Assembly (NCBI GenBank): GCA_902787955.1
Contig: CADAIJ010000007.1
Coordinates: 128,326 to 192,325, forward strand
DNA from: an uncultured Erysipelotrichaceae bacterium
Lineage (GTDB): Bacteria; Bacillota_I; Bacilli_A; RFN20; CAG-826
DNA: 64,000 nt
Direction: 5' to 3'
Positions 29,986-52,679 of the stretch are shown here, piece after piece (within the stretch, counting starts at the first letter, position 1; each line of letters begins with the position of its first letter). Made by a program: the position numbers and the translations under genes. The notes below the pieces were generated by a model. That model was not told where the DNA came from, did not search any database, and was given only the letters and a program-made list of their open reading frames with translations.

Positions 29986-30008
29986 CGAGAGTCAATAAGA
30001 ATTATCAA

Positions 30009-30536: not shown

Positions 30537-30569
30537 TAGTCTTAATCATCTAATTAGTTGCGTAATAAA

Positions 30570-30603
30570 AGCCATCAAGAATCACTATCTTGGTGGCTGT
30601 TTA
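30570..30603. terminator. bidirectional intrinsic terminator between convergent genes
   Basis: AGCCATCAAGA-atcacta-TCTTGGTGGCT hairpin flanked by A and T runs. Confidence 0.5.
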
Positions 30604-30634
30604 CTATATATATGGTTTCTAACACTGAATTCAA

Positions 30635-31084
30635 TTAGTGTCTTTTCGCAAATTCCTTCTCGTATCTAACTCTATCGTTATCTGATACTTCTAACATTAT
30701 TTGGATTAATTCATTAGTGACATACTCTACTAACTCTTTAAATCTTTTAAGTTCTTTAATCTCTTCTTTATCTTTAATATCATGCTCATATAAAGCAGCT
30801 TCTCCGATTAAGGTAGGGAATAGTTCATATAGTTCATTTAAAGAAGCATTCATATAATCATCGATAATGTTTTCTTTATGCATGGTAACAGTTAAATCTT
30901 CCATCTCCCTTATATCAAATAGATACTGTTCCTTGTTATCTATATCAATACTAATAGGGGCATCCATATGATGGAGGTTATATAAATGCACGATATTATC
31001 AAAAAGGACGTAGTAGTCGGTGCGGATATCTGGTGGTAGTCTATTAAAGTCTTCGAATTCTTTTAAAGCGGCGAGATCAGGCAT
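30635..31084 (-). CDS. hypothetical protein
   Basis: 149 aa, acidic. Confidence 0.4.
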   Translation of the reverse strand: MPDLAALKEFEDFNRLPPDIRTDYYVLFDNIVHLYNLHHMDAPISIDIDNKEQYLFDIREMEDLTVTMHKENIIDDYMNASLNELYELFPTLIGEAALYEHDIKDKEEIKELKRFKELVEYVTNELIQIMLEVSDNDRVRYEKEFAKRH

Positions 31085-31459
31085 TTTAAAGTCCCCTTTC
31101 TTATTAGTAACTCTAAGAATATCTTAATGGTTTTTTGAAATAAAGTCACAAGAATGATTGATTTTATATTTTTTATTAAATAATAGACCAAGCAAACCCA
31201 TTTTCCGTCTTCTATATCTATATCCTTCTATCCCTATGTCAGGCTAGCTTCTTTAAAGCTTGAATGAATTGTTGAAATTTTGAATGAATTATCAATTAAC
31301 TGCTAGATTGGTGTTGATTTTTCGACTTCTATATGATTTTATAACTATGGAATTCACCCGTGGTAGCTCATGACTACCGCCTAGTGGGAATTCTTTTTAT
31401 TTATAATTTCCCAAATTTTATCAATATCATCAGGACATAATTTATAATCCTTTAAAATC

Positions 31460-31924
31460 TCACTTAGATATTCCTCTAATATCATTTCTTAAATATGAAT
31501 CTTCTTCCCAATTTTGGGGATTATAAATATTCTCATACCATTCAATAAAATCTTTTAGGCCACAAAATCTTTTAACATAGTGTGGTGCGCATCCTGCCGC
31601 AGTTATTCCAATGATATCAAAAGTATTAAGTGGGATAGAGAACACTAATAACTTAAAACCACCTGTGTAGTGTTTAATGCTATTAAAATCAACATCTCTT
31701 CCTGTGTGCTTTTTAAAGAACGCTCGTAATTGTTCCCCTGTTTCTTTGTCTTTAAAACCAAAGATTGCTTTTGTGATTTCAGTTTTTACTTGCATACTTA
31801 TTTCCTCCTTTACGTGCTTGCCTGCTTGCTTGCCTGCTTGCTTAAGCGTTCCATAAAGAAGAAAAGCTCCCATCGTTATGATAGGAGCAACTATATCTAG
31901 AATAATATTGTTCCCATCAACCAA
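31460..31924 (-). CDS. hypothetical protein (probably starts at a TTG or an internal ATG)
   Basis: ORF with an in-frame 12-nt tandem duplication encoding QAGKQAGK. Confidence 0.35.
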   Translation of the reverse strand: MVDGNNIILDIVAPIITMGAFLLYGTLKQAGKQAGKHVKEEISMQVKTEITKAIFGFKDKETGEQLRAFFKKHTGRDVDFNSIKHYTGGFKLLVFSIPLNTFDIIGITAAGCAPHYVKRFCGLKDFIEWYENIYNPQNWEEDSYLRNDIRGISK

Positions 31925-31939
31925 GCTTTAGCACTTTGC

Positions 31940-31984
31940 CTTATTTAATTAAGGTAAGTTGCTGGTGGGTCATAGGGCTTGTCC
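31940..31984. repeat. copy 3 (short, internally deleted) of the cassette-boundary repeat
   Basis: taattaagg...ttgctggtgggtcatagggcttgtcc aligns with the 3' part of the copies at 38559 and 45422. Confidence 0.5.
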
Positions 31985-32250
31985 CTCGCCACTCTCTTTA
32001 TGGTGATTTAATTATAATCTAAATTCCAAAATTAGTGGAATAGTTATTTCTTTAGTGTGATTTATGCTTTTTCTTTGATTTAAATAGGCTTGTGTCATTA
32101 CTCGTCATTAAGAGGTGAAACAGTTATTCAATCCTGACGTTTCTAGATGTATAATGGCAAATATGGTAATACGGTTTCACTTTTTGATTGGTAGTTTCAT
32201 TTTGTGCTCAAGCGGTTTCAAATGAAGAGGCTAGATAAGGATGATTATAA

Positions 32251-32280
32251 AGGCTACCCAGCAATTAAGTTGAGTAGCCT
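32251..32280 (-). terminator. intrinsic terminator of the helicase-MTase operon
   Basis: AGGCTAC-ccagcaattaagttga-GTAGCCT hairpin immediately after the stop at 32284. Confidence 0.45.
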
Positions 32281-32283
32281 ACT

Positions 32284-33066
32284 TTATTGTCTAAACCTTG
32301 AATAAGACAATTTTTGAACACGACATTTTTCTTTATAGTCTTCTGTTTTAAAATATTCTTCGTCTATTCCTACTTTAGCTAAAGGAAGAAAGCAATTGCT
32401 ATAATACTTAGGAAAAGGAGTATAATCACAAGTATCAGCGCAAACAATTCTATTACTATTTTTCCCTGGTAGGCTTCCCATTCTCAAGCGGACTTGCCTT
32501 ATTGATAATTTTCTAAATCCTTTTTCAAAGAAAAGGAAGTTTACACCACCAGGATTAGCGACAGATTTGTAAGCTAAACAATCAGGTCTTAATTCTATTA
32601 TTTCATTAATAACTTCTGTTTCTTCTTCGTTTAGGGTAATTCCTTCTTCGTTTTTCTTTAATATTTCATGAAAGGAGATATCTCTACCGTCAATAATAAT
32701 TAAGGGCTCACTATTATCTATAATAGGGAATGTGCTGGTTGCATCATCATACGCCCAAAAAGTAATAATATTATTCAATGACCCATGTTTCTTAATTTCT
32801 TTTCTTGCAGTATCTATTGAATCCGCCCAATAAGATAATTTTTGACCTGGAAAAAGAGTAGAGTATCTATTGTTAATATTAGATAATCTCAAATTTCCTT
32901 CGTTTAATTTAAATACGCTTTTGCCATAAAATGATGGATTGAATTCAACACATCTAAAAAAGTCAAATTCGTCGGTAACATATACAGGCAATCTGTTATG
33001 TTTGAAAATCTCTCTTCCCCAGTCTTGATTTGGAAATAATGGTGCATTAATTTTCCTTCCACTCAT
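32284..33066 (-). CDS. hypothetical protein, possibly RES-domain-like
   Basis: The segment NNRYSTLFPGQKLSYWADSIDTARKE resembles the RES-domain R...S...E core; weak. Confidence 0.3.
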   Translation of the reverse strand: MSGRKINAPLFPNQDWGREIFKHNRLPVYVTDEFDFFRCVEFNPSFYGKSVFKLNEGNLRLSNINNRYSTLFPGQKLSYWADSIDTARKEIKKHGSLNNIITFWAYDDATSTFPIIDNSEPLIIIDGRDISFHEILKKNEEGITLNEEETEVINEIIELRPDCLAYKSVANPGGVNFLFFEKGFRKLSIRQVRLRMGSLPGKNSNRIVCADTCDYTPFPKYYSNCFLPLAKVGIDEEYFKTEDYKEKCRVQKLSYSRFRQ

Positions 33067-33068
33067 TT

Positions 33069-36000
33069 TTACTTAACCATGTCCTCAGAAGTTTTTTCAA
33101 TGAACAATATTTCTTCATCGCTTAAACCGTACTTGCTATAAAGTTGCTTATCAATTTCAGAAACTGATTTATCCCATTGAATTTCTGAGTTATTAGAAAA
33201 ATCTAGTAATGGAATGTTTGCCCAAGTATCTTTAGGATTGTTTTGCGTAACTTTGAGTGTTCCCAGCATAAATCTTAAAAACTTTGTGTAAATATATTTT
33301 TCAAAATTTTTAGCTTCGATTTCAGTATTAAAATTACCAATGCTCATAAATGTTTGGGTATGACATTCATTTGGCTTAGCAACAATTGGCTTACTTAATT
33401 GTTCACCTAATTTTCCACTTCCATTTGCACCTGTTATAAAAACTTTATAATGATTTAAATTATCGTTTTCCCTAACATATTTATTCGCAATAAATTTCCA
33501 TGTACGTTGATTATTTTGTCTGCCACAAACTCTAATATCATCTTTATTTACTTGAGATTCAGAAAATACTTTTGGCATTTTTTCAAAAATACTAGCATCA
33601 ACTATTAGTTCGTTTCCTTTTGTAAACGTTCCGATATACTCAGGAAAATCTTTATAAATAATACTCTCAAGATTATATGTACTTTTTGGAAATGCTATAG
33701 AGTCAATAAAAACATCTGTTTTTTTTCTAACCTTTTCAATAATATTCTTAGTAATAGGATTTTCAGTGAAATGAACAATCGGGCCTATTTTTCTACTTTT
33801 ATCCATCAATGTTACCGCAACACCGCCTTTTATTTCGGCTGTAGGGAAAACAACACGTGAATCACTAAAGTAATCAATTACAGAAAAATGCTCATCATTC
33901 AACATTTTGATATTCCATTCTGCAGGAGTTTGTCCGGCATTGAATAAAAATCTTGCAGGGCTAATTAATGTAACTAAGTTTGAAATCGAAAATGAAGCCT
34001 GATAGAAATAATGATAAATAGGATTTTTTCTGTTATTATTTATTTCTTCTTGATATGGTGGATTGCCTACTATTGCATTGAATTTCATTTGCCCATGACC
34101 TCCTAAATTCCAGAATGATGGTTTTAATACTTTTTGTATAAATTGTGCTTGCTTATCTTTTAATTGCATTACTAAATCATCAAAAGAATGCATATTTGTT
34201 TTTCCATTTCTATAGCCAAGCAATGTTCTTTTAGTAATAAGTTTTGCCATTGGCGTTTTACAAATAACGAACACTTGATTCTTAACGACGTTATCCCAAT
34301 ATTCAACTTTCTTTTCAAAACTTATATCGTCTAAATTCTTAATCGCTTCTCTATATAAGGAATAAGTTACATATAGTGGATATAAACCTGTTTTTGAATT
34401 GATTTCAAGTATTTTTGCTTCTTTAGTAAACACTTTATTTGTAACATCAATTTGGTCAACAAATCTTGGTTCTTCTATCATGTTGTTATGAGATTCATCA
34501 AAGAAATCATAGCCACCAATAGTGTCTGACATATGCATATTCACAACACGCCATGGTGTCAAAACTGTTTCTTTATCAGGATTCTTAAATGTTGCAAATA
34601 ATGATGCAATTTTCTTTACTCTTTCAGTAGGTTCTAGTTCATCAGCTGTTTTAGCAATGTATCTTATTCTTCTACTTGCAGCTACAAAAATGTCTTTATC
34701 ATAATACTTAGAAAATTTTTTAAATGTTGCTTTATCTACGCCAGCAGGCATAAATTCATTCCAAGATGTATCATCAACTAAATCAGCAAAATTATCAATT
34801 GTGACATCTGCTTCAATATCGATATTCATACCATAAACTAGAAGAGGCATTCTAATAGAAATAGCTCTTAAAATAGATATAGCTGAATCGCGATTCTTTT
34901 TCTTTTCTTTTAATTCAGCAAGACGTTTCTTTTCTTCTTCAGTTAATTCTTGCTTTTTCTTTTTCTCTTTTAGTTTCTTTTCTTCTTCGGTTTCTTCCTC
35001 ATCAAAGCCTTCTTTATTAATATCAATATCTCCAGCTTTTTTAGTTTGCTTAGAAGCACCAACTATCTTTTTTAAGTTTTCGAATTCTTTTAATTCAACT
35101 TCAGTTAATTTTAGTAGCTCATCATTATAGATTTTAGGATCATCAAAGCCATTTCTAGCGACTCTTTCAGCATAAGCTTTCTTCAACTCTTGCAGCAACT
35201 CAGCAACTTGATATTCTTTCATATTAGAATCTTCAATTGCTATAACAGGGCAATAATTCAAGAACTTGGAAAGAGATAATTCAGCAACACTATTGTTTGC
35301 TCCTGCTCTTGCTGAAAGCTGTACCGATTCAGCTACCATCTTTAATGTACGATCTGGAGCAAAATCAAATACAAAGCATTCTGCCTTTATCTTGCCATTG
35401 ATATTTGCAGGAGATTGAACTCTAAAAATTGTTTGAAGATATTGGCTAGCTGCAGTCGAGTATGTGCCAGCAAGCATTAAAACTGCTGTCCATTCAGGAA
35501 CAGTAACTCCAGTAGTTAATCTTCCACAAGATAAAGTAATAGTTCTAGTATCTTCTGGGTGGTCTGTCATTTTTTCTTTTAACGCTTTTAAAGCATCAGA
35601 AGTATCAATTTCTTCTCCACCATCACCAGCAACATTAACAACAGCAAATTCTTTTAATATATGATGATTCTTTATTAGTTTTTCCAAAGCTTTAGCTTCT
35701 TTAACGCCAGGAACTACCCATAAAGAATGCCTAAAGTAATCTCTATATTCATCGGTTGAATAAGGATAATTTGTATCATCACTTTTTTTACATATTAAAT
35801 CTAAAAAGGCTTTTACATCTTGTTCATGAACAAAATCACCAGCTTTTACTCCGTTAGGTACTTTCTTGCCATCTTTTTCAATATCACCTGTCCAAATTCT
35901 AAAGAATTCTCTAAAGTTAAATGCCTTATCCATTACATCGATATATACTGGAAGACTCTTCTCAAGATGATAAGTAAATATATTCATTTTTGGAAGTTCC

Positions 36001-37082
36001 TCATACGGGTTAGAATCACCAAAATGGTTTTGGTCCCATAATGTTTTGGCTTCTTGTTCCATAATATAATCCCATGTATAAATGGATTCCTGTTCAAAAT
36101 CAGTTAGCAAGTTAAATGGTGTTCCTGATAATTCTAGAACGTGTGTTTTATATTCATCATTAGGTTTAATAACTGCTTCTAATACATTTTTACCAAGTTG
36201 TGTTTGAGTTCCTTCGTGTGCTTCATCGACAACAACAAAGTCCCAGTTTGTCTTAAACACATCATCATTCTTATCAAAGTTCCCACCAACAGCATCACTA
36301 CCACGTAAATCTTGCATAGAAGCAAAATAAACAAAAGAAAGTCCAGCTTTTTCTAGTTCTTTGATGGATTTATGGCCATCTTTTTTAGAGCCAAATGCAT
36401 AATTTGGTTTATCGTAAAAAATTTTACCAAAATCCTCGAACCAGCCATCACTTACTACTGGTCTATGAGTAATAATTATTGTTCTCTTAAATTCCATCTC
36501 TTTAGCCACTTCTAAAGCAGTTAAAGTTTTTCCAAAACGCATCTTAGCATTCCAAAGCATTCTATTATCCGTCTTGTATCTGAAAATGGTCTTTTTAATG
36601 GCTTCTTTTTGTTCTGGCCTAAATATAATAGGATTTTTATTACTCGTCATTTGTGATGAATTTAATGCAGTGTTTCCAGCCTTTACAGCTGCAATAGCAT
36701 TCTTTGCTGTATTTAAATCACATTCAAACCACTCATTTGGCTTTTTATTGAATTCAAATGTTTTCTTTTTTATACCAGAGCGGATTAAAACTTCATGTAC
36801 TTTATAGTCTCTAAATGCTTTAACTTTTCCATCTTTATTGTAGACAGCAATTTCAGTATGAATTAAATCATAATTAATTGCAGCGGTTGCTGTATATGAG
36901 TCTATTCTTTTTCTGGCTGCATAATTTAAATCATGGCAATTTGGAGCAAAGCTAGAATAAGGCTTATCAGTATGAATTGTAGCATCACCAATCTTTAAGC
37001 ACCCTGCGTGTTGCTTATCATTAATTCTAAATATATAAATAAGTTTATATTCAAATGTTGAATTGAATTTTATTGAACACAT
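33069..37082 (-). CDS. single-polypeptide restriction-modification-like enzyme: T5orf172/GIY-YIG-like domain + SF2 (res-subunit-type) helicase + coiled-coil linker + gamma-class N6-adenine methyltransferase + C-terminal target-recognition-like region
   Basis: N-terminus YKLIYIFR...LKIGDAT...EWFECDL fits the T5orf172 pattern. Walker A GKT and DEAH-box FVVVDEAHEG. A charged coiled coil EEETEEEKKLKEKKKKQ. MTase motif I-like KILEINSKTGLY and motif IV AIVGNPPYQ. Confidence 0.7.
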   Translation of the reverse strand: MCSIKFNSTFEYKLIYIFRINDKQHAGCLKIGDATIHTDKPYSSFAPNCHDLNYAARKRIDSYTATAAINYDLIHTEIAVYNKDGKVKAFRDYKVHEVLIRSGIKKKTFEFNKKPNEWFECDLNTAKNAIAAVKAGNTALNSSQMTSNKNPIIFRPEQKEAIKKTIFRYKTDNRMLWNAKMRFGKTLTALEVAKEMEFKRTIIITHRPVVSDGWFEDFGKIFYDKPNYAFGSKKDGHKSIKELEKAGLSFVYFASMQDLRGSDAVGGNFDKNDDVFKTNWDFVVVDEAHEGTQTQLGKNVLEAVIKPNDEYKTHVLELSGTPFNLLTDFEQESIYTWDYIMEQEAKTLWDQNHFGDSNPYEELPKMNIFTYHLEKSLPVYIDVMDKAFNFREFFRIWTGDIEKDGKKVPNGVKAGDFVHEQDVKAFLDLICKKSDDTNYPYSTDEYRDYFRHSLWVVPGVKEAKALEKLIKNHHILKEFAVVNVAGDGGEEIDTSDALKALKEKMTDHPEDTRTITLSCGRLTTGVTVPEWTAVLMLAGTYSTAASQYLQTIFRVQSPANINGKIKAECFVFDFAPDRTLKMVAESVQLSARAGANNSVAELSLSKFLNYCPVIAIEDSNMKEYQVAELLQELKKAYAERVARNGFDDPKIYNDELLKLTEVELKEFENLKKIVGASKQTKKAGDIDINKEGFDEEETEEEKKLKEKKKKQELTEEEKKRLAELKEKKKNRDSAISILRAISIRMPLLVYGMNIDIEADVTIDNFADLVDDTSWNEFMPAGVDKATFKKFSKYYDKDIFVAASRRIRYIAKTADELEPTERVKKIASLFATFKNPDKETVLTPWRVVNMHMSDTIGGYDFFDESHNNMIEEPRFVDQIDVTNKVFTKEAKILEINSKTGLYPLYVTYSLYREAIKNLDDISFEKKVEYWDNVVKNQVFVICKTPMAKLITKRTLLGYRNGKTNMHSFDDLVMQLKDKQAQFIQKVLKPSFWNLGGHGQMKFNAIVGNPPYQEEINNNRKNPIYHYFYQASFSISNLVTLISPARFLFNAGQTPAEWNIKMLNDEHFSVIDYFSDSRVVFPTAEIKGGVAVTLMDKSRKIGPIVHFTENPITKNIIEKVRKKTDVFIDSIAFPKSTYNLESIIYKDFPEYIGTFTKGNELIVDASIFEKMPKVFSESQVNKDDIRVCGRQNNQRTWKFIANKYVRENDNLNHYKVFITGANGSGKLGEQLSKPIVAKPNECHTQTFMSIGNFNTEIEAKNFEKYIYTKFLRFMLGTLKVTQNNPKDTWANIPLLDFSNNSEIQWDKSVSEIDKQLYSKYGLSDEEILFIEKTSEDMVK

Positions 37083-38059
37083 AAGGTATACCCCCTAGCT
37101 AGTAAATCTACATATCTTACTTTTTTATTCTTTTCCCAATCCATTATCTTTGCATATATGCCGTTATGCTGATATACATCGCCTTTAGCACAACCTATGC
37201 ATCCATTTTCTTGTACATCTTCTTCGCCAAACAAGTTTATTTGAACTATTCTTTCTACTTGACAAGATTCAGGTATAACGCATTTAATTCCATCCATTTG
37301 CCATAAATTCCAAGAAATAATAGTTGCAACTTCAATCATTAAATCTTGAGATGGAAGCTCATTTAATTTTGCATAGTAATACTCAAAATAACTAAATAGG
37401 ACATTTTCTCGTGCAAGTAATAAATTATCTCCTTGCCATTCATAACCATATGTTGCTTTTAAGGCTTCTAAAGAATATTTTACCCAGTCCTCTTTATTAT
37501 TAGTATTCTCATTAACGACTCTTAACTTTCTATCTAAAAGACCTACTCTATCCTTTAAATCAATTCTATTACCAGTAACAGTATCATAACGACTAACAAT
37601 ATAAGGGGCTTCACCACATGTTATTTCCATTCTTATATCTTTAACATAGTCTATCCACGTTTTGCCTTCTGGATACTCAATTTTAGATTCAGTAGATTTC
37701 CATGTATTATTATCTAGCTCCTCATTGAAGACACCTGTTTTATTAAACCATGCATTATCAATTAAATTGTTTTGTTTATTACACATCCAAGATGGTGTAA
37801 ATACTTCAGCATTATCTTTAGATCTCTTTGATTGTTCGGTTTTTGATTTTTGGCTTCTGGGTTTAATGAAATTCTTTTCACCAATAATAAAAGGTGACAT
37901 GTTTTCTTTAAATCTATATCCTTTTCTTTTATATGAGTCAGTAGCCCAAATAATATTTTTTCTAGTTGTATTATCTATCAAAAGTAAATCCAGAATCTTT
38001 GGATAATTTTCTAATAGGTATTTTTCATTGATGTCAATTGAATCCAAAAATTCCATCAT
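37070..38059 (-). CDS. hypothetical protein co-transcribed with the helicase-MTase (contains an EVFTP-type motif-X-like string but no NPPY)
   Basis: 329 aa; AEVFTPSWMCNKQNNLID; overlaps both the upstream HTH gene and the downstream giant gene. Confidence 0.4.
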   Translation of the reverse strand: MMEFLDSIDINEKYLLENYPKILDLLLIDNTTRKNIIWATDSYKRKGYRFKENMSPFIIGEKNFIKPRSQKSKTEQSKRSKDNAEVFTPSWMCNKQNNLIDNAWFNKTGVFNEELDNNTWKSTESKIEYPEGKTWIDYVKDIRMEITCGEAPYIVSRYDTVTGNRIDLKDRVGLLDRKLRVVNENTNNKEDWVKYSLEALKATYGYEWQGDNLLLARENVLFSYFEYYYAKLNELPSQDLMIEVATIISWNLWQMDGIKCVIPESCQVERIVQINLFGEEDVQENGCIGCAKGDVYQHNGIYAKIMDWEKNKKVRYVDLLARGYTLCVQ

Positions 38060-38250
38060 TATTCCTCCACTTCAATTTTATATTTTTCTAAATAAGGCAT
38101 TAACATTCTTTTAATTTTCATAGTTGGTTCATGCGTTCCCGCTTCCCATCTATTAACAGTACCGAAAGTCACACCAAAAAGTGCTCCAAATTCAGTCTGA
38201 GTTAAACACATTTTTAATCTAACTTTTTTTATAGCTTCATTATATTTCAT
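38059..38250 (-). CDS. XRE-family HTH protein (controller-like)
   Basis: LTQTEFGALFGVTFGTVNRWEAG is an HTH_3 motif; first gene of the operon; a TATAAT lies about 30 nt upstream. Confidence 0.6.
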   Translation of the reverse strand: MKYNEAIKKVRLKMCLTQTEFGALFGVTFGTVNRWEAGTHEPTMKIKRMLMPYLEKYKIEVEE

Positions 38251-38558
38251 TGTTAAAAAGCCTCATTTCATAAATATGTTAATATTATATCATCTTTTAA
38301 TCATTTTTGCTATTGTTAAGAGTTAATTTCTTCCTTAATATCTTTTTATTACTTCAAGTACTGGTCCAAACATAACTGGATCTAATGCATCGCAAAGCCA
38401 AGTTTATGTAATTCTTTTATCATATTTTCATTCATAAAGTTAAAACCATATGCATACCATTTGGGTCACCTCAATTTTAAATAATTGTGAACAGCGAATT
38501 TTGGCAGATACTATAAAAATGAATCTATAGATAATATTTCTATTATAAATACACAAGT

Positions 38559-38658
38559 TGCGCACATTTCTTATCCTCATACCTATACAAATAATGCCCC
38601 TATAATTAAGTACAGCATTGGAGCCCAGTGTAGTCGCCTTGCTGATGGCTAGGGCTTG
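38559..38658. repeat. copy 1 of the ~100-nt cassette-boundary repeat
   Basis: About 85% identical to 45422..45523. Differences are compensatory within predicted hairpins: GCC/GGC versus CACC/GGTG, and GCCC/GGGC versus CCCAG/CTGGG. Confidence 0.65.
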
Positions 38659-38713
38659 TGAAAATATTAAGAGGATATGCAACCAATCAAATTATCAGTG
38701 ACTGATTGGATTT

Positions 38714-40027
38714 TTATATATCGCGGTAACCTAGCATCCAATTTATCCAACTTCGAATTGTTGAAGCTCTCCTTTTAAATGTGGAATCTGATAATTTTAA
38801 TGTATCTTTTTTATCTAAAAGCATCATCTCAATATCATCTGTGGTTGACTTAGTAATACTCTTTTCTCTCAAATCATTGTAAATTTTATTAAAAATGTCT
38901 TTCGAAATTAGTCTGTTAAATATCTCTTTTTCAATTTCTTCTTTATTACCTATTACCTTCAATGCGGAATCAGTAAACTTTTTTTCATGAGTGAGAAAAC
39001 CCAAATATACCAATGCCGAAAGGTAATAAGAGATTTGCCTTTCCGTATTTAAATCTAGAATTTTTAAAGCGTAGTCTTTATCATCTAAAACTCTTTGCCC
39101 CGCAATTAACATATTTACAATCTTAGTAATGTCATTTGCTTGAGGAAGAGTATTGTTAAAACCAAGAATTATAACTTCTTTTCCGCTTTTTCTTTCATTT
39201 CCATTAGAGTTAATACTGCGCAAAGTGGAAAACTTTTCTGCATAGTAGAAAATTTGGTATTTAGAATCTTTAGAAAATAACTCTATTACTTTTTCTGTCG
39301 CATTATTACTAAGAACTAATGCAGCGCCATTATCAATTGCTCTATCGCAAACAATTTTTAATTTTTCAAAATCACTAAATGTAAATCCAGCTAATTGATA
39401 TTTTGTAAAACCATCATCATCCTCATAATCATATGGTGGATCAACATAAATTATGTCGCCTGCTTTTGCCATATTTATTGCAGCCTCATAGGAACCAGAT
39501 AGAATTTTTATCGTATCCTTATTCTCAAATAAATATTTATGTATTTCTCTTAAGTTCGAACTATCACAGATTGTTGGATTTCGATATCTTCCGATTGGCG
39601 TGTTGAATTGCCCTTTATTATTAACTCGGTATAAGCCGTTGTAGCATGTTTTGTTAAGGAAAATCATGCGTGCAGCTCTTTCGACTGGTGAGTATGCTTG
39701 CGGCCAATCTTCTCTTCTATCCCACGCTCTTACTTCATAATAAAAATCGTCAGGATCTTGCCTGTATTTAGTATCAAATTCTTGAAGCTTAATAATTAAT
39801 TCTTCAATCTTATTGGACTGGATTACTTTATACGCATTTATTAAATCTTCGTTTAAATCGTTGATTATCGCCTTAGTGGGTTTGCGATCAAAAAACACTG
39901 CGCCGCCACCTAAAAAAGGTTCGATATAAGTAAAATCTTGAGAACCATCTGCTATTTCATCGATGTATCCATTGATTTTATCTAATATTTGCCTTTTTCC
40001 ACCGGCCCATTTAACAAAAGGTTTCAT
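38714..40027 (-). CDS. Dam-family (D12 class) N6-adenine DNA methyltransferase with a C-terminal extension of about 150 aa
   Basis: FVKWAGGKRQIL N-terminal signature, FLGGGAVFF SAM motif, and VDPPYD catalytic motif. Confidence 0.8.
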   Translation of the reverse strand: MKPFVKWAGGKRQILDKINGYIDEIADGSQDFTYIEPFLGGGAVFFDRKPTKAIINDLNEDLINAYKVIQSNKIEELIIKLQEFDTKYRQDPDDFYYEVRAWDRREDWPQAYSPVERAARMIFLNKTCYNGLYRVNNKGQFNTPIGRYRNPTICDSSNLREIHKYLFENKDTIKILSGSYEAAINMAKAGDIIYVDPPYDYEDDDGFTKYQLAGFTFSDFEKLKIVCDRAIDNGAALVLSNNATEKVIELFSKDSKYQIFYYAEKFSTLRSINSNGNERKSGKEVIILGFNNTLPQANDITKIVNMLIAGQRVLDDKDYALKILDLNTERQISYYLSALVYLGFLTHEKKFTDSALKVIGNKEEIEKEIFNRLISKDIFNKIYNDLREKSITKSTTDDIEMMLLDKKDTLKLSDSTFKRRASTIRSWINWMLGYRDI

Positions 40028-40034
40028 TTATTAT

Positions 40035-40775
40035 TTATTCACTAGTTAATTTCTTTAATTGATTGTATACCATTTCTGCTAAATCTTCTTCACTTATCGC
40101 GTCTAACAATCTTACGCTGCCTAAATAAGAAATGTATTTTGCTATTTCTGCATATAAATCATTATTTTCATTGTTTGGGTTTTCATCGTAAAACCTTTTT
40201 TCTCCGCGTAAGGCACCTCTCACTAAATGTTCTTCAGAAGAGAATGAACGCCATGTTAGGTTTCTAAATCTCAATGGATTCTCAACAACCCATTTTGATA
40301 ATTCATACTTATCGGGTTTTGATTCATCAACAGTAAGTGCTATACGGAAATAACATCGAGATAAAACCCCAAACATGAGTCCTCTTCTAACACCTGTTGT
40401 GTGAAGCCACATATTTTTAATTGTTGTTGAACTATTAATCTTCATAAGGTTTTTGGTAACTAAATAGAATTTATCTAAATGCAACCAAAGCCAGAATCTT
40501 ACATCGGTTAAAATGTGTCGTGGAAGTTGATTTAAGTGTTCATATAACCTTTTAGAGTTTTCGAAATCGATTTCTTTATCTTTTCCTTCAGGGTTATCAA
40601 TTAATTCAAAATCTTCAATTGCGATTTTCTTTTCAACAAACATTGGTTGAGGAAAAGTATCTTTCATCCAAGCATTATCATCATTTGAGATAATTAAATT
40701 AGTCAAAGATTCAACGTTATGAACAAAATATTCATAAGCATCATTTGATAAAAGTTTAATATGAATAAACGCCAT
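40035..40775 (-). CDS. hypothetical protein (cassette member)
   Basis: 246 aa; directly follows the next ORF upstream with a 2-nt gap. Confidence 0.4.
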   Translation of the reverse strand: MAFIHIKLLSNDAYEYFVHNVESLTNLIISNDDNAWMKDTFPQPMFVEKKIAIEDFELIDNPEGKDKEIDFENSKRLYEHLNQLPRHILTDVRFWLWLHLDKFYLVTKNLMKINSSTTIKNMWLHTTGVRRGLMFGVLSRCYFRIALTVDESKPDKYELSKWVVENPLRFRNLTWRSFSSEEHLVRGALRGEKRFYDENPNNENNDLYAEIAKYISYLGSVRLLDAISEEDLAEMVYNQLKKLTSE

Positions 40776-40777
40776 AA

Positions 40778-41683
40778 TTATTCCTCCTCAGGTTGTGCTG
40801 TTTTCGATTGAAGCGATAATTTTTCAAGACTAGAACCAAAAGGTTTTTTCAAAAGCTGTTGTGCGAAAGAACACGCAGAAGTCTTCTTAAATGTATCAAC
40901 TTCTAAATCGGTTCCAAATAATCTTTTGTATGATGACAAAACCGATCTAAACCAAATATGTTTATTACAAATATCATCGAAATCTACGTCATCATCTTGA
41001 ATTTCACTTTTACAAATTGAGAAGCCTTCAGTTAACGCTGGAATAAGCAAAGAATTAAAGAACATTTCTTGATAAGCAGGAATTGCATAAATGATTTTAT
41101 AATTATCAAAATCTTTCTTTGCCATCGTAATAACAATCTTCTTAGAAGAATCGCAATCAACAGAAAACATTCCATCTTCTAGTTTTTCATCGCAAATAAT
41201 GGAGAATATAGATGAGACAACATTGTTTTCTTTTTCTTCGTGACGGGCATGCATGTTAAACCCATCATAAACTGCGACTATATCATATTTTTCAATGCTG
41301 AATTTATAGTCTAAGTAATCATCATCAAACTCGTCAGATGAGAGTATAAAATCTTCTGTTGCATAAGCAAATAATGAGCAATCCAATCTTTCATTAAAAT
41401 CAGATTTATATAAAGTTAATTTTTGAGGTTGCTGAGTAATGACAAATTTTTTTCTAAATACGGTATACGAACATTCAATAATTAATAAGATTTCAATTTT
41501 CTTTTCATCATAAAGCTTTTGGATTGTTTTGCTGTTCGTCACGAAACAAATGTTATCAAAAACAAATCTGTCATCATATTCAATAAAATCGTAGCTAAGA
41601 TCAAAGGTTAAATCTTTGTAATTAGATAATCCTAAATTTTTATTAATAACAGGATACGGAAACAGCTTATTTCTGACTTGCAT
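40778..41683 (-). CDS. hypothetical protein (cassette member)
   Basis: 301 aa, acidic; overlaps the GHKL gene by 17 nt, implying translational coupling. Confidence 0.4.
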   Translation of the reverse strand: MQVRNKLFPYPVINKNLGLSNYKDLTFDLSYDFIEYDDRFVFDNICFVTNSKTIQKLYDEKKIEILLIIECSYTVFRKKFVITQQPQKLTLYKSDFNERLDCSLFAYATEDFILSSDEFDDDYLDYKFSIEKYDIVAVYDGFNMHARHEEKENNVVSSIFSIICDEKLEDGMFSVDCDSSKKIVITMAKKDFDNYKIIYAIPAYQEMFFNSLLIPALTEGFSICKSEIQDDDVDFDDICNKHIWFRSVLSSYKRLFGTDLEVDTFKKTSACSFAQQLLKKPFGSSLEKLSLQSKTAQPEEE

Positions 41684-43610
41684 ATGTTATTTTAACCTCG
41701 CTTCCAAAATTTTCGTGAATATTTGTAACTAATTGAATTAAGACTTTTTGTCCTTCTTTTATCGAAAAAGGCCCAGCTTCAATTTGTGTTGAGCAATCAA
41801 CATTAATTCCATTCACTTTCATTTCTATAATCTCAATTTGCTCGCCACCATTTACATCATCAAGTCTTAAAAGTGATAAGTAACATTCTTCTTTAGAAGT
41901 TGGGGCATTAAAGACAACGTTAAATCTGCCTTCTTTTGGGTTTACACCAATAAACTTATAATTTACTCCGGCGAGCTTTGTTCGAACGAAAATGACGCTA
42001 TCCCCATCTTTTTTTCCACCTTTTTCAGTGCCAGGATGAGGGTCACCACCAGTTTTTTCATTCCTACCACCAGGATATTCAACTTCATTGCCTTCATCAT
42101 CAATGCCACCAATTTGTGGTTCAAGTCCATTGTCAAAATCGCTCTTATAGTTTGCGTTCTTGCTAGATGTTGAATTTTCTTTTCTTTTTGACATTGTAAC
42201 TTCATCAGCTGGTTTTGGTTTTTCATTATTCTTCTGTCCGCTATCACCTGCAGCTTCATCTGGCAAATATTCACCGGCCCCATTTGGATCGATCGGATCA
42301 TCATTGTCTAGTTGAAGACATTCAATAATTTTCTCATTAATCTTTATTTTAATTTCATTAATTAATCCAACGATTTCTTTTTTATATGCTTTATCTTCAA
42401 TTCTATTTGTTTCCCAATCATCATGTTTTGGGTTTTCTATATTGCGTAGGGCTTTTCCTAAATCTTCGCCTTCAATAATACAAAGTGCAGAAGCATCATA
42501 TGAATTCGACATATTAAAGTTTTTAATCTTCATATATGGTTTTCTAATCATTGTGATTTGATGTGTTGCCAAATCAGAATTATCTTTGCCAAGTTTTAAT
42601 ATATATAAACTGCAATTGCCATATTCTGTATCGATATCGAAAACGCTAACATCTTCTCCACCTTTTAAAATTAAATATTGAGATACTATTTCATTTTTTA
42701 ACTTAGCATCAATGAGTTCTTCGTCAAAAACTAAACTATCAAGTGTTTCTTTTGAAATAATAATATCTTGATATTTTACAACTATATGACCGTAGAAAAT
42801 CGATGCCATGAATGACTCAAGCACGCTATTAACAACTTCTTTTTTAGTATCTGCAGAATCAGAGTAACCGATAATAAAAATATCGGTTCCACATTCATCG
42901 TTTCGATTCAATGCACTCTCATCAAGCATCAATAAATTATCGCAAGGTTCATGCAATTCATTAGAACAATAATATCCCTTTCCTAAAGTGTAATCATTGC
43001 TTTGAGAACCAACAACTACACCGGAAGCAAAATCGGCAACGCCAATTGATCCAGAATAACTACACAGTTCACCGTTTAGCCCTTGATTTGTCTTAGTTGA
43101 ATAAAATACAACCTTAGTTGAAGACATTAAAAAGGCAGCATTTTTACCAACACCCTTAGATCCTCCTGCTAACTCACTAGGTTTTTCTGATACACCAGTA
43201 CTTTTAGCTAAAGCTAAAAATCTATTATTTTCTGATTCGTTACTTTCTATACCAACTAGACCAGTTGTATTGTAGTCGCTTACTCTTAGACATGTGATTT
43301 TTTTGCTAGATAATGACTTTAATATTTTGTCATAAACAGCAACATAGTCTTTCTTGTATGACCAAAGATCAATACAGTTTTGGGCAGCTTGGCGAAGTTC
43401 GTCAATCCCCGGAATCTTAGCTGTATCAATTTCAAATGTTTTAAATTCAACAAGGACAGGACTCTCGTCTGAAGCTCTCGCATCAATTGAGTTCTGTAAA
43501 ATTTCACGTGCAAAGCCTTTATGCGCGTTCTTTTTGAATGTTTCGGTATCAGCAGTGCTTATACCCCTTTTATCAGTGTGATTTGCTTTAGGAAATCTCC
43601 AATTATTCAT
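41667..43610 (-). CDS. GHKL/Bergerat-fold ATPase (MORC/MutL-like HATPase_c) protein
   Basis: Motif N FAREILQNSIDA, G1-like SDYNTTGLVG, G2-like GGSKGVGKNAAF. The large C-terminal region has no recognised motif. Confidence 0.65.
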   Translation of the reverse strand: MNNWRFPKANHTDKRGISTADTETFKKNAHKGFAREILQNSIDARASDESPVLVEFKTFEIDTAKIPGIDELRQAAQNCIDLWSYKKDYVAVYDKILKSLSSKKITCLRVSDYNTTGLVGIESNESENNRFLALAKSTGVSEKPSELAGGSKGVGKNAAFLMSSTKVVFYSTKTNQGLNGELCSYSGSIGVADFASGVVVGSQSNDYTLGKGYYCSNELHEPCDNLLMLDESALNRNDECGTDIFIIGYSDSADTKKEVVNSVLESFMASIFYGHIVVKYQDIIISKETLDSLVFDEELIDAKLKNEIVSQYLILKGGEDVSVFDIDTEYGNCSLYILKLGKDNSDLATHQITMIRKPYMKIKNFNMSNSYDASALCIIEGEDLGKALRNIENPKHDDWETNRIEDKAYKKEIVGLINEIKIKINEKIIECLQLDNDDPIDPNGAGEYLPDEAAGDSGQKNNEKPKPADEVTMSKRKENSTSSKNANYKSDFDNGLEPQIGGIDDEGNEVEYPGGRNEKTGGDPHPGTEKGGKKDGDSVIFVRTKLAGVNYKFIGVNPKEGRFNVVFNAPTSKEECYLSLLRLDDVNGGEQIEIIEMKVNGINVDCSTQIEAGPFSIKEGQKVLIQLVTNIHENFGSEVKITYASQK

Positions 43611-43629
43611 ACCTTTCCCCCTTTCTTAC

Positions 43630-43851
43630 CTATAACTCGAATCTTTTATTATTCTTATTGTTTTTCTTTAAAAGATATTCTTTAACTTTTTTTGTTTCTT
43701 TCTCTATTAAGCTAAACATTTTCGCAATATCATCGTCATCATATTCATAGTAAGAAGCATTGCTCAAGTTGCCTAATTGATTAATAGAAGAAACAATTTT
43801 TGAAACACGGTTTTCTGAAATCCTTTTAAAATTAGATCTTTTATTTTCCAT
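43630..43851 (-). CDS. small hypothetical protein (73 aa)
   Basis: ORF positioned between operon members. Confidence 0.3.
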   Translation of the reverse strand: MENKRSNFKRISENRVSKIVSSINQLGNLSNASYYEYDDDDIAKMFSLIEKETKKVKEYLLKKNNKNNKRFEL

Positions 43852-43937
43852 ATCAGTTTCCTCACAAAAATGTTACTATAACAAGCAATATACGTCAAAT
43901 ATTTTCGTAATATTTTTCAACTATTGTGAAAATCAAA

Positions 43938-45359
43938 TTATTTTACTAAAGTAACTTTAAAATTTAATGCACTATAAGTTGACCCACTATTTTCAACAGC
44001 ATAGTGCTCTCTTAAAAAAGAATTAATTATTCCTAGAAGAAGATATTTGTTCCAAGGGTAAACTAATGTTGGCAAAGATGAAAATCCTTTATATGTTTCA
44101 GAATCTATATTTGAAAAACTATTGATATAGAAATCTATTTCATCTTTTATCTTTTCTAAATCGCTATCAGTAATAATAAAGCTGCTCTTTCTAACAAATT
44201 TATCTTCGTTAATACTGACATAGTCATCAGCAATATCTTCAGCAAACTGCTGTATGTTTGTCAAAAATGTTATATTCAATTTCTTCGCATGCTGTTTTAG
44301 CTCGGAAAGTGTAAACGAATCTTTTGAATACGCATATTCCTTAATCATTTGTTCTTTAGAAAGGGCGGTCTCTTTTGAAAGAGAGATAAATGGTTTAGAA
44401 AAATAATAAGTTCTTCGTAACCCTAATTTAGCGATTGAGAATAAAACATTGCGGTTTGAGGATGTCCCAAGCTCTTTCATTTTGTCATAATGTAAAAGCA
44501 TCATTCTACTGTATAACTTATCAATAGAAATTGTTGTTGTTTTTAAAGAATCAAACAGGTATTGAATTTCTTTTGATAAGATTGGAATAAAATCTTCACT
44601 CAATTTGAGATCATTATTATCAAAGAATTCTTTATCAGCAAAGTAACTGTCTAAATAATTGAGACATTTTTCAATAGCACCAGCACTTTTTGGTGATGTT
44701 ATATATTTTGTCTGTGCATATTCAATCGTTTTTGTTTTGTAATTAAAAAAAGCAAATTCATCTTCAAACAAGAAAAAATCAGTAAACCCTGGCGAAATTT
44801 CATGCAATAATCCGTTAATAGTTTCAAAGTTATTAATAATATGGTTTGCTTTAAAAACATCGAGGCCAATACTTTTTAATGCTTTTTTAAATCCTTTTAC
44901 AGCTTCATTATGATAATATTCCTTAACTTCTTTAGGTTCACAAACGTGATGTCTTGAAATTAATAAAAGGCAAGATTTTAAATCGACATCATAAAATTCA
45001 AGTATGTTGACAAGCATCATAAATGAATGGGTGGCGGTGTGATTTAAGTTAATGTATAAATCACGATACATCCTATGATTTGAATTTTTGGTTTCACTAA
45101 AGAGTTTTTGCTTGCTCCACCACAATTCGTATGACAAAAGTTCCTCTTTGGTTTTAGGGTTTAAACTATCAAGTATTTTTAAAACATCAAAAACGAGATT
45201 TGTCCACCCTGTTGGATATAACTTAATATTGTCACATTCAAAATAAAATGGGGTTGTATCAGTTAAAACAGGAGTCTCTGTATCAAGAGCATATTCATAA
45301 TAATGATGCCCATTAATTACATGAATCTTATATTTATCTTTTAGCTCATCGAAAGTCAT
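43938..45359 (-). CDS. hypothetical protein (first gene of the GHKL/Dam cassette)
   Basis: 473 aa; a TATAAT lies immediately upstream; no motif recognised. Confidence 0.4.
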   Translation of the reverse strand: MTFDELKDKYKIHVINGHHYYEYALDTETPVLTDTTPFYFECDNIKLYPTGWTNLVFDVLKILDSLNPKTKEELLSYELWWSKQKLFSETKNSNHRMYRDLYINLNHTATHSFMMLVNILEFYDVDLKSCLLLISRHHVCEPKEVKEYYHNEAVKGFKKALKSIGLDVFKANHIINNFETINGLLHEISPGFTDFFLFEDEFAFFNYKTKTIEYAQTKYITSPKSAGAIEKCLNYLDSYFADKEFFDNNDLKLSEDFIPILSKEIQYLFDSLKTTTISIDKLYSRMMLLHYDKMKELGTSSNRNVLFSIAKLGLRRTYYFSKPFISLSKETALSKEQMIKEYAYSKDSFTLSELKQHAKKLNITFLTNIQQFAEDIADDYVSINEDKFVRKSSFIITDSDLEKIKDEIDFYINSFSNIDSETYKGFSSLPTLVYPWNKYLLLGIINSFLREHYAVENSGSTYSALNFKVTLVK

Positions 45360-45421
45360 AACTAACTCTTATTATAAAAAATCATTGGTTTATTCAACAA
45401 CACCTATTTTATTTCGAAACA

Positions 45422-45523
45422 ACTAAATTGAGGCGGACATTTCTTGTCCTCACACCTATATAAATAATACCCATATAATTAAGGCACAGCATTGGAACCC
45501 AGTGTAGTCACCTTGCTGGTGGC
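45422..45523. repeat. copy 2 of the cassette-boundary repeat (5' part of the GC-rich non-coding segment)
   Basis: Aligns base-for-base with 38559..38658 and carries compensatory hairpin substitutions. Confidence 0.65.
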
Positions 45524-45995
45524 TGGGGCCTAGCCTAGTATAAGGAGAAATGTGGGATACTGCATCAATCCGAAGACCAAAGTAGAAATACTTAGGTATC
45601 CGACTAAAAGAGTCGCTTAGGTTAGTGGCGCATTTCGCTTCTATATGTAAGTAGGTAATAGACCAGGCATGACAAGAGGCTCTGCAGAAATGCATCCCAC
45701 GTGCAGATAGTAGGTTTGAGACCCTATTATCTCCGTTCTCAAAGGAAGTGCTTGATTTGACGGGTGGTGACATCCTATAACTGGTCTATTATGCATCAGT
45801 AGGGGAATATCAAGTTGACCTAGTTATGAAGATCATCTTGCTGAAGCTCCCTGAAAGTTGGAGGATACTGGTTCCTCCCTAGGTATCGGTTAGTAATAAC
45901 TCTCATCGGAAGTAACGGGGTCGCTCCCTATTACTCAGCCCGATGCGTTAGTGTACGAACAACATATCGAAGTAAGAGGTGTATGACGAAGGTCG
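45422..45995. ncRNA. candidate large structured non-coding RNA (unclassified; strand unresolved)
   Basis: About 570 bp with clearly higher GC than the surroundings and no credible ORF. Many perfect hairpins, for example GGAGGAtactggtTCCTCC. An interleaved AGTAATA / CATCGG / TATTACT / CCGATG arrangement is pseudoknot-like. Confidence 0.4.
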
Positions 45996-46044
45996 CCAGT
46001 GCTATTTTTATTTAATACTTACTAGAAAAGGAGGGAGTTCCTAT

Positions 46045-46254
46045 ATGAAAAAGACAAAATCAAAGTCTAGTTACACTAACATATGGTTACATAGAAATAA
46101 ACATATGTGGCATGAGTTGGATGGCTTAATTATTCTTGAGGATAGAGAGCACACTCCTAAGATAGTTAGAGATAGAGTAGACGAGATCAATTCGAAGAAA
46201 ATGAAACCGTCAAATAATGACGATATTATGGAATTCCTTAAAGACTTCCTTTAG
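46045..46254 (+). CDS. small basic hypothetical protein (about 70 aa)
   Basis: AAAAGGAGGG RBS 7 nt before the ATG at 46045; a terminator hairpin follows. Confidence 0.45.
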   Translation: MKKTKSKSSYTNIWLHRNKHMWHELDGLIILEDREHTPKIVRDRVDEINSKKMKPSNNDDIMEFLKDFL

Positions 46255-46529
46255 GAACAAGGGTTGAGCGACATCAATCCTTTTTCTTTACTTATAAAGA
46301 TTATTTGAAAAAGAAAACATCCAGTAAGGATGTCGAATGCAGAGACCTTAAAGGCTTCCGCGAATACGTTAACTACATCGATACTGGATGTACCATCGTT
46401 TTCAATACGGCGGATATTTCTCACACTGTATCCTACGATGTCTGCTAAGTAGTCTTGTGTCCAATTCTTACTTAGTCTTAGTTGCTTAATGGATTTACCT
46501 ATTAAGCTTGAATCAATTAATGTACTCAT
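46251..46529 (-). CDS. XRE-family HTH regulator
   Basis: NWTQDYLADIVGYSVRNIRRIE is an HTH_3 motif. Confidence 0.6.
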   Translation of the reverse strand: MSTLIDSSLIGKSIKQLRLSKNWTQDYLADIVGYSVRNIRRIENDGTSSIDVVNVFAEAFKVSAFDILTGCFLFQIIFISKEKGLMSLNPCS

Positions 46530-46664
46530 ACAACACCTCCTATTCTTTGATTCATAATTTGTTTCGTAATTTACTAATAGAGGTTTTATGAGTGAAATCT
46601 ATTCTATAGATTGTTGACTCGGTAGCAACGCTGATTTTTGCTACCGAGTACAATCTAATAAGAA

Positions 46665-46880
46665 TTACGCTAGAAGTTTTGCGATTTCTGTAACAACATA
46701 ATCGTATTGATCATTTTGATCTTTGATATAGTCGAGAACTACTTCTGGGAATTCTTTTTCTTCGGTTTTAAGAACTAAATAGCCGTATGAATCGTGTTCC
46801 CACTTATCTTTGTTACTATCAAGCCATTTGTTTGCTTCTTTTACTTGAAGATGTCTTTGATATAGATCTTTACTAAGCAT
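46665..46880 (-). CDS. small hypothetical protein
   Basis: 71-aa ORF in the minus-strand gene array. Confidence 0.35.
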   Translation of the reverse strand: MLSKDLYQRHLQVKEANKWLDSNKDKWEHDSYGYLVLKTEEKEFPEVVLDYIKDQNDQYDYVVTEIAKLLA

Positions 46881-46904
46881 ATCTATTCTCTACCTCCTTT
46901 CTTT

Positions 46905-47132
46905 TTAGTATTCGTCTGGATAATTTGTATTCCACCACGCTATACATTCTCTTGTATAACGCATGCTTTCGTTTTGATCGTCTGCAACTTGTCTAATCCA
47001 ATCAGGGACACTAGGGTCGATAATAACCATGTCTCCTTCTTTGTTAAACTCCCAAGTATCTGGATGAGTTTCTAACCAATAAAGACCTTTTTCGAATTTT
47101 TCCAAATGTGACATTTTTGTTATATCTTCCAT
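46905..47132 (-). CDS. small hypothetical protein (start revised to an internal ATG)
   Basis: AGGAGG lies 8 nt upstream of the ATG at 47132. The longer track ORF would include a GGCCCAG...CTGGGCC hairpin. Confidence 0.4.
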   Translation of the reverse strand: MEDITKMSHLEKFEKGLYWLETHPDTWEFNKEGDMVIIDPSVPDWIRQVADDQNESMRYTRECIAWWNTNYPDEY

Positions 47133-47394
47133 GCGAATACCTCCTAAAGGTTTTGTTTGGCCCAGTATATTCCCCTGGGCCATGGGAAGCGGTTATAGAA
47201 ATTAGAGAAAGGAGATGTCTATGGATTTAGATTATTCACTTCTTACCGCCGGAAGAAGGATAATCCCACAATGTAAGTCAATACGGTTTTCGTATCGACA
47301 CCATTAATGTACATAAAGAAAATGAAGTCGTACAAATTCCTGACTTGTTGATATTAACAATCCTATTTTTAATAGGATTAACTGAATTTATGGG

Positions 47395-52095: not shown

Positions 52096-52098
52096 ATA

Positions 52099-52677: not shown

Positions 52678-52679
52678 GC

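Follow-up and report, generated by a model that had tools for sequence, protein, structure and literature searches.

In a 64,000-nucleotide stretch of DNA from an uncultured Erysipelotrichaceae bacterium (contig CADAIJ010000007.1, positions 128,326 to 192,325; hereafter the window), two cassettes of defence genes lie between short sequences that a first-pass annotation had described as three copies of one structured element of ~100 nt. We found that the third copy (copy 3) is the 5' end of an intact gene for the structured RNA ROOL, that the second (copy 2) is a truncated and degenerate duplicate of this front end, and that the first (copy 1, 31940-31984) belongs to an unrelated SAM-I riboswitch. 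In a related genome the riboswitch and the ROOL gene are adjacent, the 5' flank of ROOL varies among related loci, and a second ROOL relic occurs in another lineage. We consider it probable that the locus arose through turnover of defence cassettes anchored on ROOL; the order of events and the recombination mechanism are what we infer from these observations. The features concerned are the following.

31911-32006, minus strand: SAM-I riboswitch aptamer (copy 1; RF00162, 47.8 bits against a gathering score of 44.4).
32284-38329, minus strand: cassette A, type IIG restriction-modification (Pfam and PADLOC matches).
38560-38655, plus strand: truncated ROOL 5' relic (copy 2), with the upstream box and ROOL positions 1 to ~56, cut after the first hairpin.
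38656-45432, minus strand: cassette B (PDC-M33/Dam), between the two ROOL 5' copies (Pfam and PADLOC matches).
45433-45473, plus strand: conserved box upstream of ROOL, the left part of copy 3 (homology to the ROOL loci of relatives).
45474-46014, plus strand: intact ROOL RNA gene (Rfam RF03087, 186.8 bits against a gathering score of 99.1, model positions 1-574 of 574).

When the window was scanned with Rfam, three matches scored above the gathering score (ROOL, SAM-I and c-di-GMP-I). The ROOL match spans 45474-46014, and copy 3 is therefore the 5' end of ROOL: 41 nt of upstream sequence are followed by ROOL nt 1-56, which comprise the 5' strand of the closing helix and the first two-tier hairpin. 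The score of the gene is comparable to those of its relatives (187-217 bits), and the match covers the full-length model. The 5' strand of the closing helix P1 (GCAUUGG) pairs with CCAGUGC at the ROOL 3' end. In the family register, CCCAG/CUGGG and CACC/GGUG of the first hairpin both pair in copy 3, and the outer helix of this hairpin is kept by covariation (CCCAG/CUGGG, CCAUG/CAUGG, CCAGG/CCUGG, CCCGG/CCGGG and CCCUG/CAGGG). Covariation likewise preserves the first hairpin, with its outer helix (CCNNG/CNNGG), GUGNAG internal loop and inner helix, in phage and bacterial members alike. Thus, the proposed novel three-member family of structured elements resolves into the plus-strand 5' end of ROOL, a truncated duplicate of it and an unrelated riboswitch. 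Copy 3 presumably heads a functional ROOL gene.

Published ROOL genes lie near tRNA islands in phages and prophages, and some occur outside prophages; the function of the RNA is unknown (Weinberg et al., 2017, PMC5737381). Cryo-electron microscopy has shown that the RNA forms a homo-oligomeric nanocage (PMC12286853). We collected relatives of the locus (numbered L036, L041 and so on below) with a generic ROOL pattern, which gave 20 phage contigs and 12 contigs from bacterial metagenome-assembled genomes (MAGs), and with a lineage-specific pattern, which gave 18 metagenome contigs. A 158.8-kb contig from a gut metagenome (ENA ERZ27280421) has the same sequence as the window; the samples in which this contig occurs are ERZ27280421, ERZ1029115 and ERR3275108. 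A blastn search of phage and plasmid collections with the ROOL region gave no match, and a scan of genome and viral contigs for the exact pattern GCATTGGNNCCCAGTGTAGTC returned zero hits; therefore no close relative is present in the scanned genome and viral collections. The bacterial relatives are MAGs of Erysipelotrichaceae, other Bacilli and Anaeroplasmatales, and their ROOL genes are ~70% identical to that of the window. All 18 phage ROOL genes examined adjoin tRNA arrays. No tRNA gene lies beside ROOL in the bacterial relatives, the two tRNA matches being ~0.6 kb (L039) and ~6.6 kb (L036) away, and none was detected in the 64-kb window. The phage and tRNA context, which is typical of ROOL but not defining, is thus absent here, and the neighbours are defence genes. 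Instead of tRNA arrays, the lineage of the window has a palindrome box, a convergent Xre-type helix-turn-helix (HTH) gene, sometimes a small open reading frame (ORF), and defence genes on the 5' side.

The box upstream of ROOL contains the palindrome GGACA-N5-TGTCC (45435-45449) and then CTCACAC, and a TATAAT hexamer follows at 45474-45479. The part of the window that is homologous to the ROOL loci of relatives (L041, L036, L045 and others) starts exactly at 45434, the left edge of the repeat. The left edge is therefore the natural start of the ROOL gene unit, and only the right edge, at ROOL position ~56, is a novel junction. In the relatives, GGAC-N7-GTCC is usually followed by TTGACA and a TATAAT-like hexamer, and then by ROOL. 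TTGACA lies only ~5 nt from the hexamer, an unworkable spacing for sigma-70, and the window box has an AT-rich stretch in its place. Scans of both copies for consensus promoters and terminators returned nothing usable, and the box has no canonical -35/-10 pair. The arms GGAC and GTCC are invariant in 18 sequences with zero covariation, which suggests a putative protein operator.

Copies 2 and 3 are clearly related. In a local alignment of 38560-38655 with 45433-45529, 85 of 96 aligned bases were identical (88%), with one 1-nt indel (blastn E-value 4e-22). The longest run of identity is 12 nt, and the similarity stops sharply at both edges, outside which nothing is shared. A covariance model (R1), based on 18 ROOL 5' units from relatives and the window but not on copy 2, was then used to search the whole window with filters off. 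Copy 3 scored 92.5 bits and copy 2 scored 35.3 bits (E = 1e-6), and the runner-up reached 14 bits (E = 0.3). The region of copy 1 scored 8.2 bits with an E-value of about 9, which is noise. Further, the best local alignment of copy 1 with copy 3 was a 10-nt word (TTGCTGGTGG), and its pairwise score was equalled by 87 of 2114 windows of the same size (4%). Additional copies of the unit were found neither in the window with R1 nor in the searched collections, and a search for added repeats at the left junction (32000-32300) gave just chance words of 8-13 nt. The repeat unit is present twice in 64 kb, not three times: of the three copies claimed initially, the two long ones stood and the short one did not.

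The differences between the two long copies had been read as compensatory and as a sign of selection on structure. In the register common to all other ROOL RNAs, however, both the inner and the outer helix of copy 2 contain a C.A mismatch. The two alternative hairpins drawn for it both need the same C and therefore cannot form together, and neither copy, when folded in isolation, outperformed its shuffles (z from +0.10 to -0.40). The only true compensated change is one of copy 3 relative to the family, from CAUC/GAUG to CACC/GGUG. When the 12 differences between the copies were polarised against 17 related ROOL genes, six fell at columns where at least 15 of the 17 relatives agree (45436, 45446, 45453, 45497, 45510 and 45525). 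Copy 2 is deviant at all six and copy 3 has the family base at each, which indicates relaxed constraint in copy 2 rather than selection on structure. The deviations of copy 2 hit both arms of the palindrome, where non-standard pairing was also flagged, and the two helix pairs that form the C.A mismatches; the sole deviation of copy 3 is a G at 45519, which pairs with a C common to both copies. The deviant sites run over the whole unit (38563-38651) without switching between copies, which argues against a crossover inside it. With the threshold relaxed to E<=10, ROOL was still unmatched in 38000-40000, and no continuation follows copy 2. Copies 2 and 3 share features absent from the 17 relatives, namely GTGTAGTC, a C at 45511/38637 and the AT-rich replacement of TTGACA, and thus both derive from closely related ROOL genes. 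Judging from these positions, copy 2 looks like a decaying, non-functional relic of the ROOL front end.

We also considered that copy 2 might be functional, as a promoter with a short structured RNA or with an antisense transcript to the 3' end of cassette B, or as a bidirectional control module shared by the cassettes. It retains the TATAAT hexamer, and a hairpin with a T-run follows ~25 nt downstream on the plus strand, as is also the case after a second relic described below (L054). The box region may also serve minus-strand genes, since the start of the divergent upstream gene is just 32-56 nt away from it in several relatives. This explanation is nevertheless very unlikely to be correct, given that copy 2 is mutated at six invariant or near-invariant positions, including both palindrome arms and two helix pairs, that it folds no better than its shuffles and that it has no further copies. 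Further, the HTH-headed operon of cassette A is 310 nt distant and has its own conserved extended -10 promoter.

Copy 1 was rejected as a member of the repeat, and the region is the conserved core of the SAM-I riboswitch read on the wrong strand. All core elements were present in the alignment (AAGAG, GAGGGA, GCCCUAUGA, GCAAC and GUGCUAA). The aptamer core, the terminator-type expression platform and the ribosome-binding site (RBS) resemble those of the family, whereas the very short P4 and a downstream gene outside sulfur and methionine functions differ from usual members. The first-pass annotation had placed a 154-aa gene behind copy 1; the real gene encodes 111 aa, and the 154-aa ORF over-extends through the riboswitch. 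The downstream features are as follows.

31855-31888, minus strand: terminator-type expression platform, GCUCCUAUC...GAUGGGAGC followed by UUUUCUUCUUU, read directly from the sequence.
31460-31795, minus strand: 111-aa gene behind the riboswitch (gene calls on the public contig), with the RBS AAAGGAGG at about 31800-31810.

The 111-aa protein had no Pfam match and only a negligible partial NCBIfam match far under the cut-off. An unusual short repeat, GCAAGCAGGCAAGCAAGCAGGCAAGCA (31815-31845, minus strand), separates the riboswitch terminator from the RBS of this gene; L041 does not have it. In L041, an Erysipelotrichaceae MAG (SIG217), the orthologous riboswitch directly leads a gene for an FtsH-like AAA+/M41 protein (riboswitch and gene together at 3183-4591, minus strand), of the same kind as the gene at 60311-61678 of the window (IetA-like in PADLOC). 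The target of the riboswitch is thus not methionine or S-adenosylmethionine (SAM) metabolism, as the 111-aa protein has no meaningful family and the L041 gene is FtsH-like. One idea is that a drop in SAM, caused for instance by SAM-degrading enzymes of a phage, would turn on defence-type genes that stand behind an OFF-type riboswitch of this kind. On the left of this gene, the contig L072 (ENA ERZ922474), which is 91% identical to the window and was compared over 29213-31531, does not contain 29295-30633 (two plus-strand genes); its homology breaks off at 31531, within the 111-aa gene, and a DUF4314 gene stands there instead. Mosaicism is therefore not confined to the right of the riboswitch but is also seen on its left.

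The arrangement in L041 shows what lies between the two RNA genes in the window. In L041, the SAM riboswitch (4464-4591, minus strand) and ROOL (4704-5238, plus strand) stand back to back, ~110 nt apart. The L041 riboswitch is orthologous to that of the window (79% identical over 168 nt, 55.6 bits), and its terminator hairpin is identical. Homology between the window and L041 extends through the riboswitch and its -10 to ~32025 and resumes from 45434. Thus, ~13.4 kb, comprising both cassettes and copy 2, fills the gap between the divergent RNA genes. The claim that the features mark the borders of two defence cassettes was therefore borne out. The claim that the element brackets both was right for cassette B, which lies between two real copies, and wrong for cassette A, whose far border is the SAM riboswitch. 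The likeness of the flank upstream of copy 2 to the L041 intergenic spacer was not significant (46 of 500 shuffles).

The ROOL 5' box is also the fixed border of a variable, defence-rich region in ~15 related loci, in support of the suggestion that it marks cassette boundaries. The genes on the 5' side of the box include the following.

L050: C5-methyltransferase with Z1/MzaC.
L051: Dam with GmrSD/HEC-06.
L052: HEC-05.
L058: GmrSD-HNH.
L040 and L047: DdmD-like helicase with a TnsA-like protein.
L056: AIPR.
L054: AAA_14/DUF4143 with a TOTE primase.

On the other side, the downstream partners of ROOL are more constant.

46045-46254, plus strand: 69-aa ORF with a strong RBS, starting 31 nt past the ROOL 3' end (called as a gene on the public contig).
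46251-46529, minus strand: Xre-type HTH gene (92 aa), convergent with ROOL (Pfam HTH_3).

The 69-aa ORF is found in the same position in L047, L040 and L063 (51-55% amino acid identity); in some members of the lineage, ROOL and a small protein gene may share a transcript. The Xre HTH gene lies beside ROOL in L041, L043-L045, L047-L052, L054 and L057-L061 (56-80% amino acid identity). Further downstream of ROOL, genes for DUF2130 (46-55% amino acid identity) and the ADP-ribosylglycohydrolase (46%) recur in relatives (L041, L051, L052 and L058), and the downstream side is therefore more conserved than the ROOL 5' side.

A second relic was detected by self-comparison and R1 in L054 and L057, both from human gut. 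In these loci, the intact ROOL is preceded at a distance of ~1.7 kb by a truncated 5' copy in direct orientation (69.3 bits, 87-88% identity, extent about -75 to +85), which flanks a one-gene AAA_14/DUF4143 cassette. Its breakpoint is at ~+85, compared with ~+56 in the window, and all seven deviations at invariant or near-invariant positions fall in the truncated copy. The L054/L057 relic is independent of copy 2. Partial duplicates of ROOL were found neither in 18 phage loci nor in 11 genome loci, nor were fragments of this kind present in the other bacterial loci. In L064, a locus of the L036 type, the ROOL 3'-terminal region forms a 35-nt exact direct repeat (1158-1192 and 2060-2094), ~900 nt away.

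According to the explanation that we favour, ROOL and its convergent HTH gene would provide conserved homology that anchors one border of a defence-gene hotspot. DNA that enters the cell would carry a cassette beside a ROOL of its own and would recombine with the resident chromosome by homology inside or beyond ROOL on one side. On the opposite side, the incoming DNA would be joined illegitimately within the resident ROOL, and the promoter-proximal stump of the resident gene would be left behind as copy 2. In this way, the gap between the divergent SAM-riboswitch gene and ROOL would have been filled by the two defence cassettes, the genes of which are as follows.

38059-38250, minus strand: cassette A, HTH.
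37070-38059, minus strand: cassette A, type II methyltransferase.
33069-37082, minus strand: cassette A, 1337-aa ResIII+Eco57I type IIG/ISP-like enzyme.
32284-33066, minus strand: cassette A, 260-aa protein.
43938-45359, minus strand: cassette B, 473-aa protein, first gene of the PDC-M33/Dam operon, beside ROOL.
43630-43851, minus strand: cassette B, 73-aa protein.
41667-43610, minus strand: cassette B, PDC-M33A, GHKL-like.
40778-41683, minus strand: cassette B, PDC-M33B.
40035-40775, minus strand: cassette B, PDC-M33C.
38714-40027, minus strand: cassette B, Dam+DUF7226.

Homologues of cassette A with 88-90% identity are present in L005-L011, which are pig and poultry gut contigs. Their homology to the window ends at 38329 (38336 in L007), 79 nt upstream of the HTH gene, and an extended -10 (TGATATAAT), read directly in L005 and L006, lies within these 79 nt. 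No ROOL fragment or repeat unit was present at the cassette-A homologues in other contigs. Copy 2 is therefore not the leader of the HTH-helicase/methyltransferase operon, as had been suggested, since the homologues keep their own promoter within the 79 nt and do without the element. In L005, the 3' end of a tRNA or tmRNA gene adjoins the cassette-A homologue.

As for cassette B, no recombinase or integrase domain was detected in its six proteins (Pfam and PADLOC, with NCBIfam on four), in agreement with the initial remark that no integrase was seen. The 473-aa protein was considered as a recombinase candidate and rejected, as it had no family match in Pfam, NCBIfam or PADLOC. A homologue of this protein (29% identical) is encoded at L056 4421-5134, ~4 kb from the ROOL of that locus. 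Nor did an integrase domain turn up in the ORFs of the window that were scanned, which comprised most of those of at least 90 aa in 20.9-62.7 kb and one upstream.

These observations bear on another explanation, in which the two ROOL 5' copies are sites similar to attL and attR. Cassette B would have entered as a circle at the ROOL 5' region, by site-specific or Campbell-type recombination, and a carried ROOL-like att segment would have restored the gene, as happens with islands at tRNA and tmRNA genes; the recombinase would have acted in trans. Cassette B is indeed flanked by direct repeats from the end of an RNA gene (38560-38655 and 45433-45529), the same layout arose independently in L054/L057, and the unit holds a conserved palindrome, which is a candidate protein-binding site. 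However, the palindrome is degenerate in both relics, and no recombinase domain was found in the six proteins of cassette B or in the one gene that makes up the L054 cassette. The longest identical run between the copies is only 12 nt, although later drift could have erased a core, given the 88% identity. Further, the extent of the repeat differs between the two cases (about -41 to +56 and about -75 to +85), and the deviations at family-invariant or near-invariant sites all lie in the truncated copy over its full length, whereas a crossover within the unit should have distributed them over both copies. We therefore regard insertion at att-like sites as improbable. The similarity to the duplications at tRNA and tmRNA islands is that a fragment of an RNA gene stands at the far end of the insert while the gene itself is intact; here, in contrast, the fragment is the 5' end with the promoter region rather than the 3' end, no integrase was found, the copies share no identical run longer than 12 nt, and each of the two events has its own breakpoint.

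Alternatively, two ROOL-headed modules might have stood in tandem, as two islands or through a segmental duplication, before most of the first ROOL was deleted together with what followed it, so that the 5' stump came to stand beside cassette B. Such a history would also yield a truncated and an intact copy of separate origins with no switch of deviant sites, and the lineage-specific features shared by copies 2 and 3 fit closely related ROOL genes. It needs two events, compared with one for anchored insertion, and a locus with two intact ROOL genes was not seen among the ~50 ROOL loci examined; we judge it unlikely.

Recombination anchored on ROOL is favoured because the left edge of the repeat is natural, the right edges differ between the two relics, no recombinase was found and the deviant sites are all in one copy. 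Several points weigh against it. L041 is a different species (its ROOL is ~72% identical), and a deletion in L041 is formally possible. No close relative (>90% identity) with other cassette content was found; for this reason we infer, rather than observe, the order of events and the donor and recipient roles. Recurrence of the relic is known from two lineages only. No canonical -35/-10 pair was found in the box. Finally, with the retained TATAAT hexamer and the plus-strand hairpin and T-run ~25 nt downstream, residual transcription from copy 2 is possible. Exact-protein look-ups with seven proteins of the window returned the same arrangement only, on contigs from a handful of samples, and the content of the interval was never different; the variants that they did reveal were all elsewhere, namely the cassette-A homologues (L005-L011) and L072. 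In one sample (ERZ1029115), a 13.6-kb contig corresponds exactly to 45548..31935, and the piece with ROOL and the HTH gene is unjoined on both sides. These ends may faintly hint at assembly-graph branches at these borders.

The remainder of the window is also rich in defence genes. From ~27 kb on, it encodes NERD, Macro, ADP-ribosylglycohydrolase and NADAR proteins, DarT with DarG, and the IetA/FtsH-like ATPase. Downstream of ROOL and the HTH gene (46251-64000), we noted three Macro genes, ADP-ribosylglycohydrolase, NADAR, DarT/DarG (56924-58544), DUF2130 and a CHC2 zinc-ribbon gene. The third RNA match of the window lies far to the left with its gene.

22492-22569, minus strand: c-di-GMP-I riboswitch (55.2 bits), directly upstream of a GGDEF diguanylate cyclase gene.
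20944-22425, minus strand: the GGDEF diguanylate cyclase gene.

Short repeats between cassettes of the same orientation bear a superficial likeness to integron attC sites. An integron cassette array was rejected, as no integron integrase was found in the scanned ORFs, there are two copies only and the conservation is of sequence rather than structure. Further, here at least one cassette (A) has its own promoter. The locus is more similar to anchored defence-island hotspots, in which a conserved anchor, here ROOL with the HTH gene, stands beside a slot with varying defence systems. It differs from them in that the anchor is the gene of a large structured non-coding RNA and that relic fragments are found inside the slot. 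In the literature searched, we found no description of truncated ROOL 5' duplicates and no paper linking ROOL with defence islands.

The element itself was already known, as it consists of two catalogued RNA families and one pseudo-fragment, and its novelty is low. What is modestly new is the context (~15 loci, two cases of a relic): in this chromosomal lineage, ROOL anchors a slot for defence genes, and 5' relics of it are left behind. Earlier replacements of cassettes appear to have left the truncated ROOL 5' stumps as footprints, which, if confirmed more widely, could serve to date and map the turnover of defence islands. We raise only tentatively the possibility of a functional tie between anti-phage defence and the chromosomal ROOL lineage found in gut Erysipelotrichaceae and in other Bacilli. 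It is likewise speculative that ROOL and the HTH gene might organise or regulate the hotspot, or join a conflict system with the DUF2130, ADP-ribosylhydrolase and Macro genes. If true, the tie to defence would be the first functional handle on ROOL, an abundant RNA of solved structure, and the reproducible non-phage context of the gene, with a regulator, an operator-like box and a defence slot, could guide experiments on its function.

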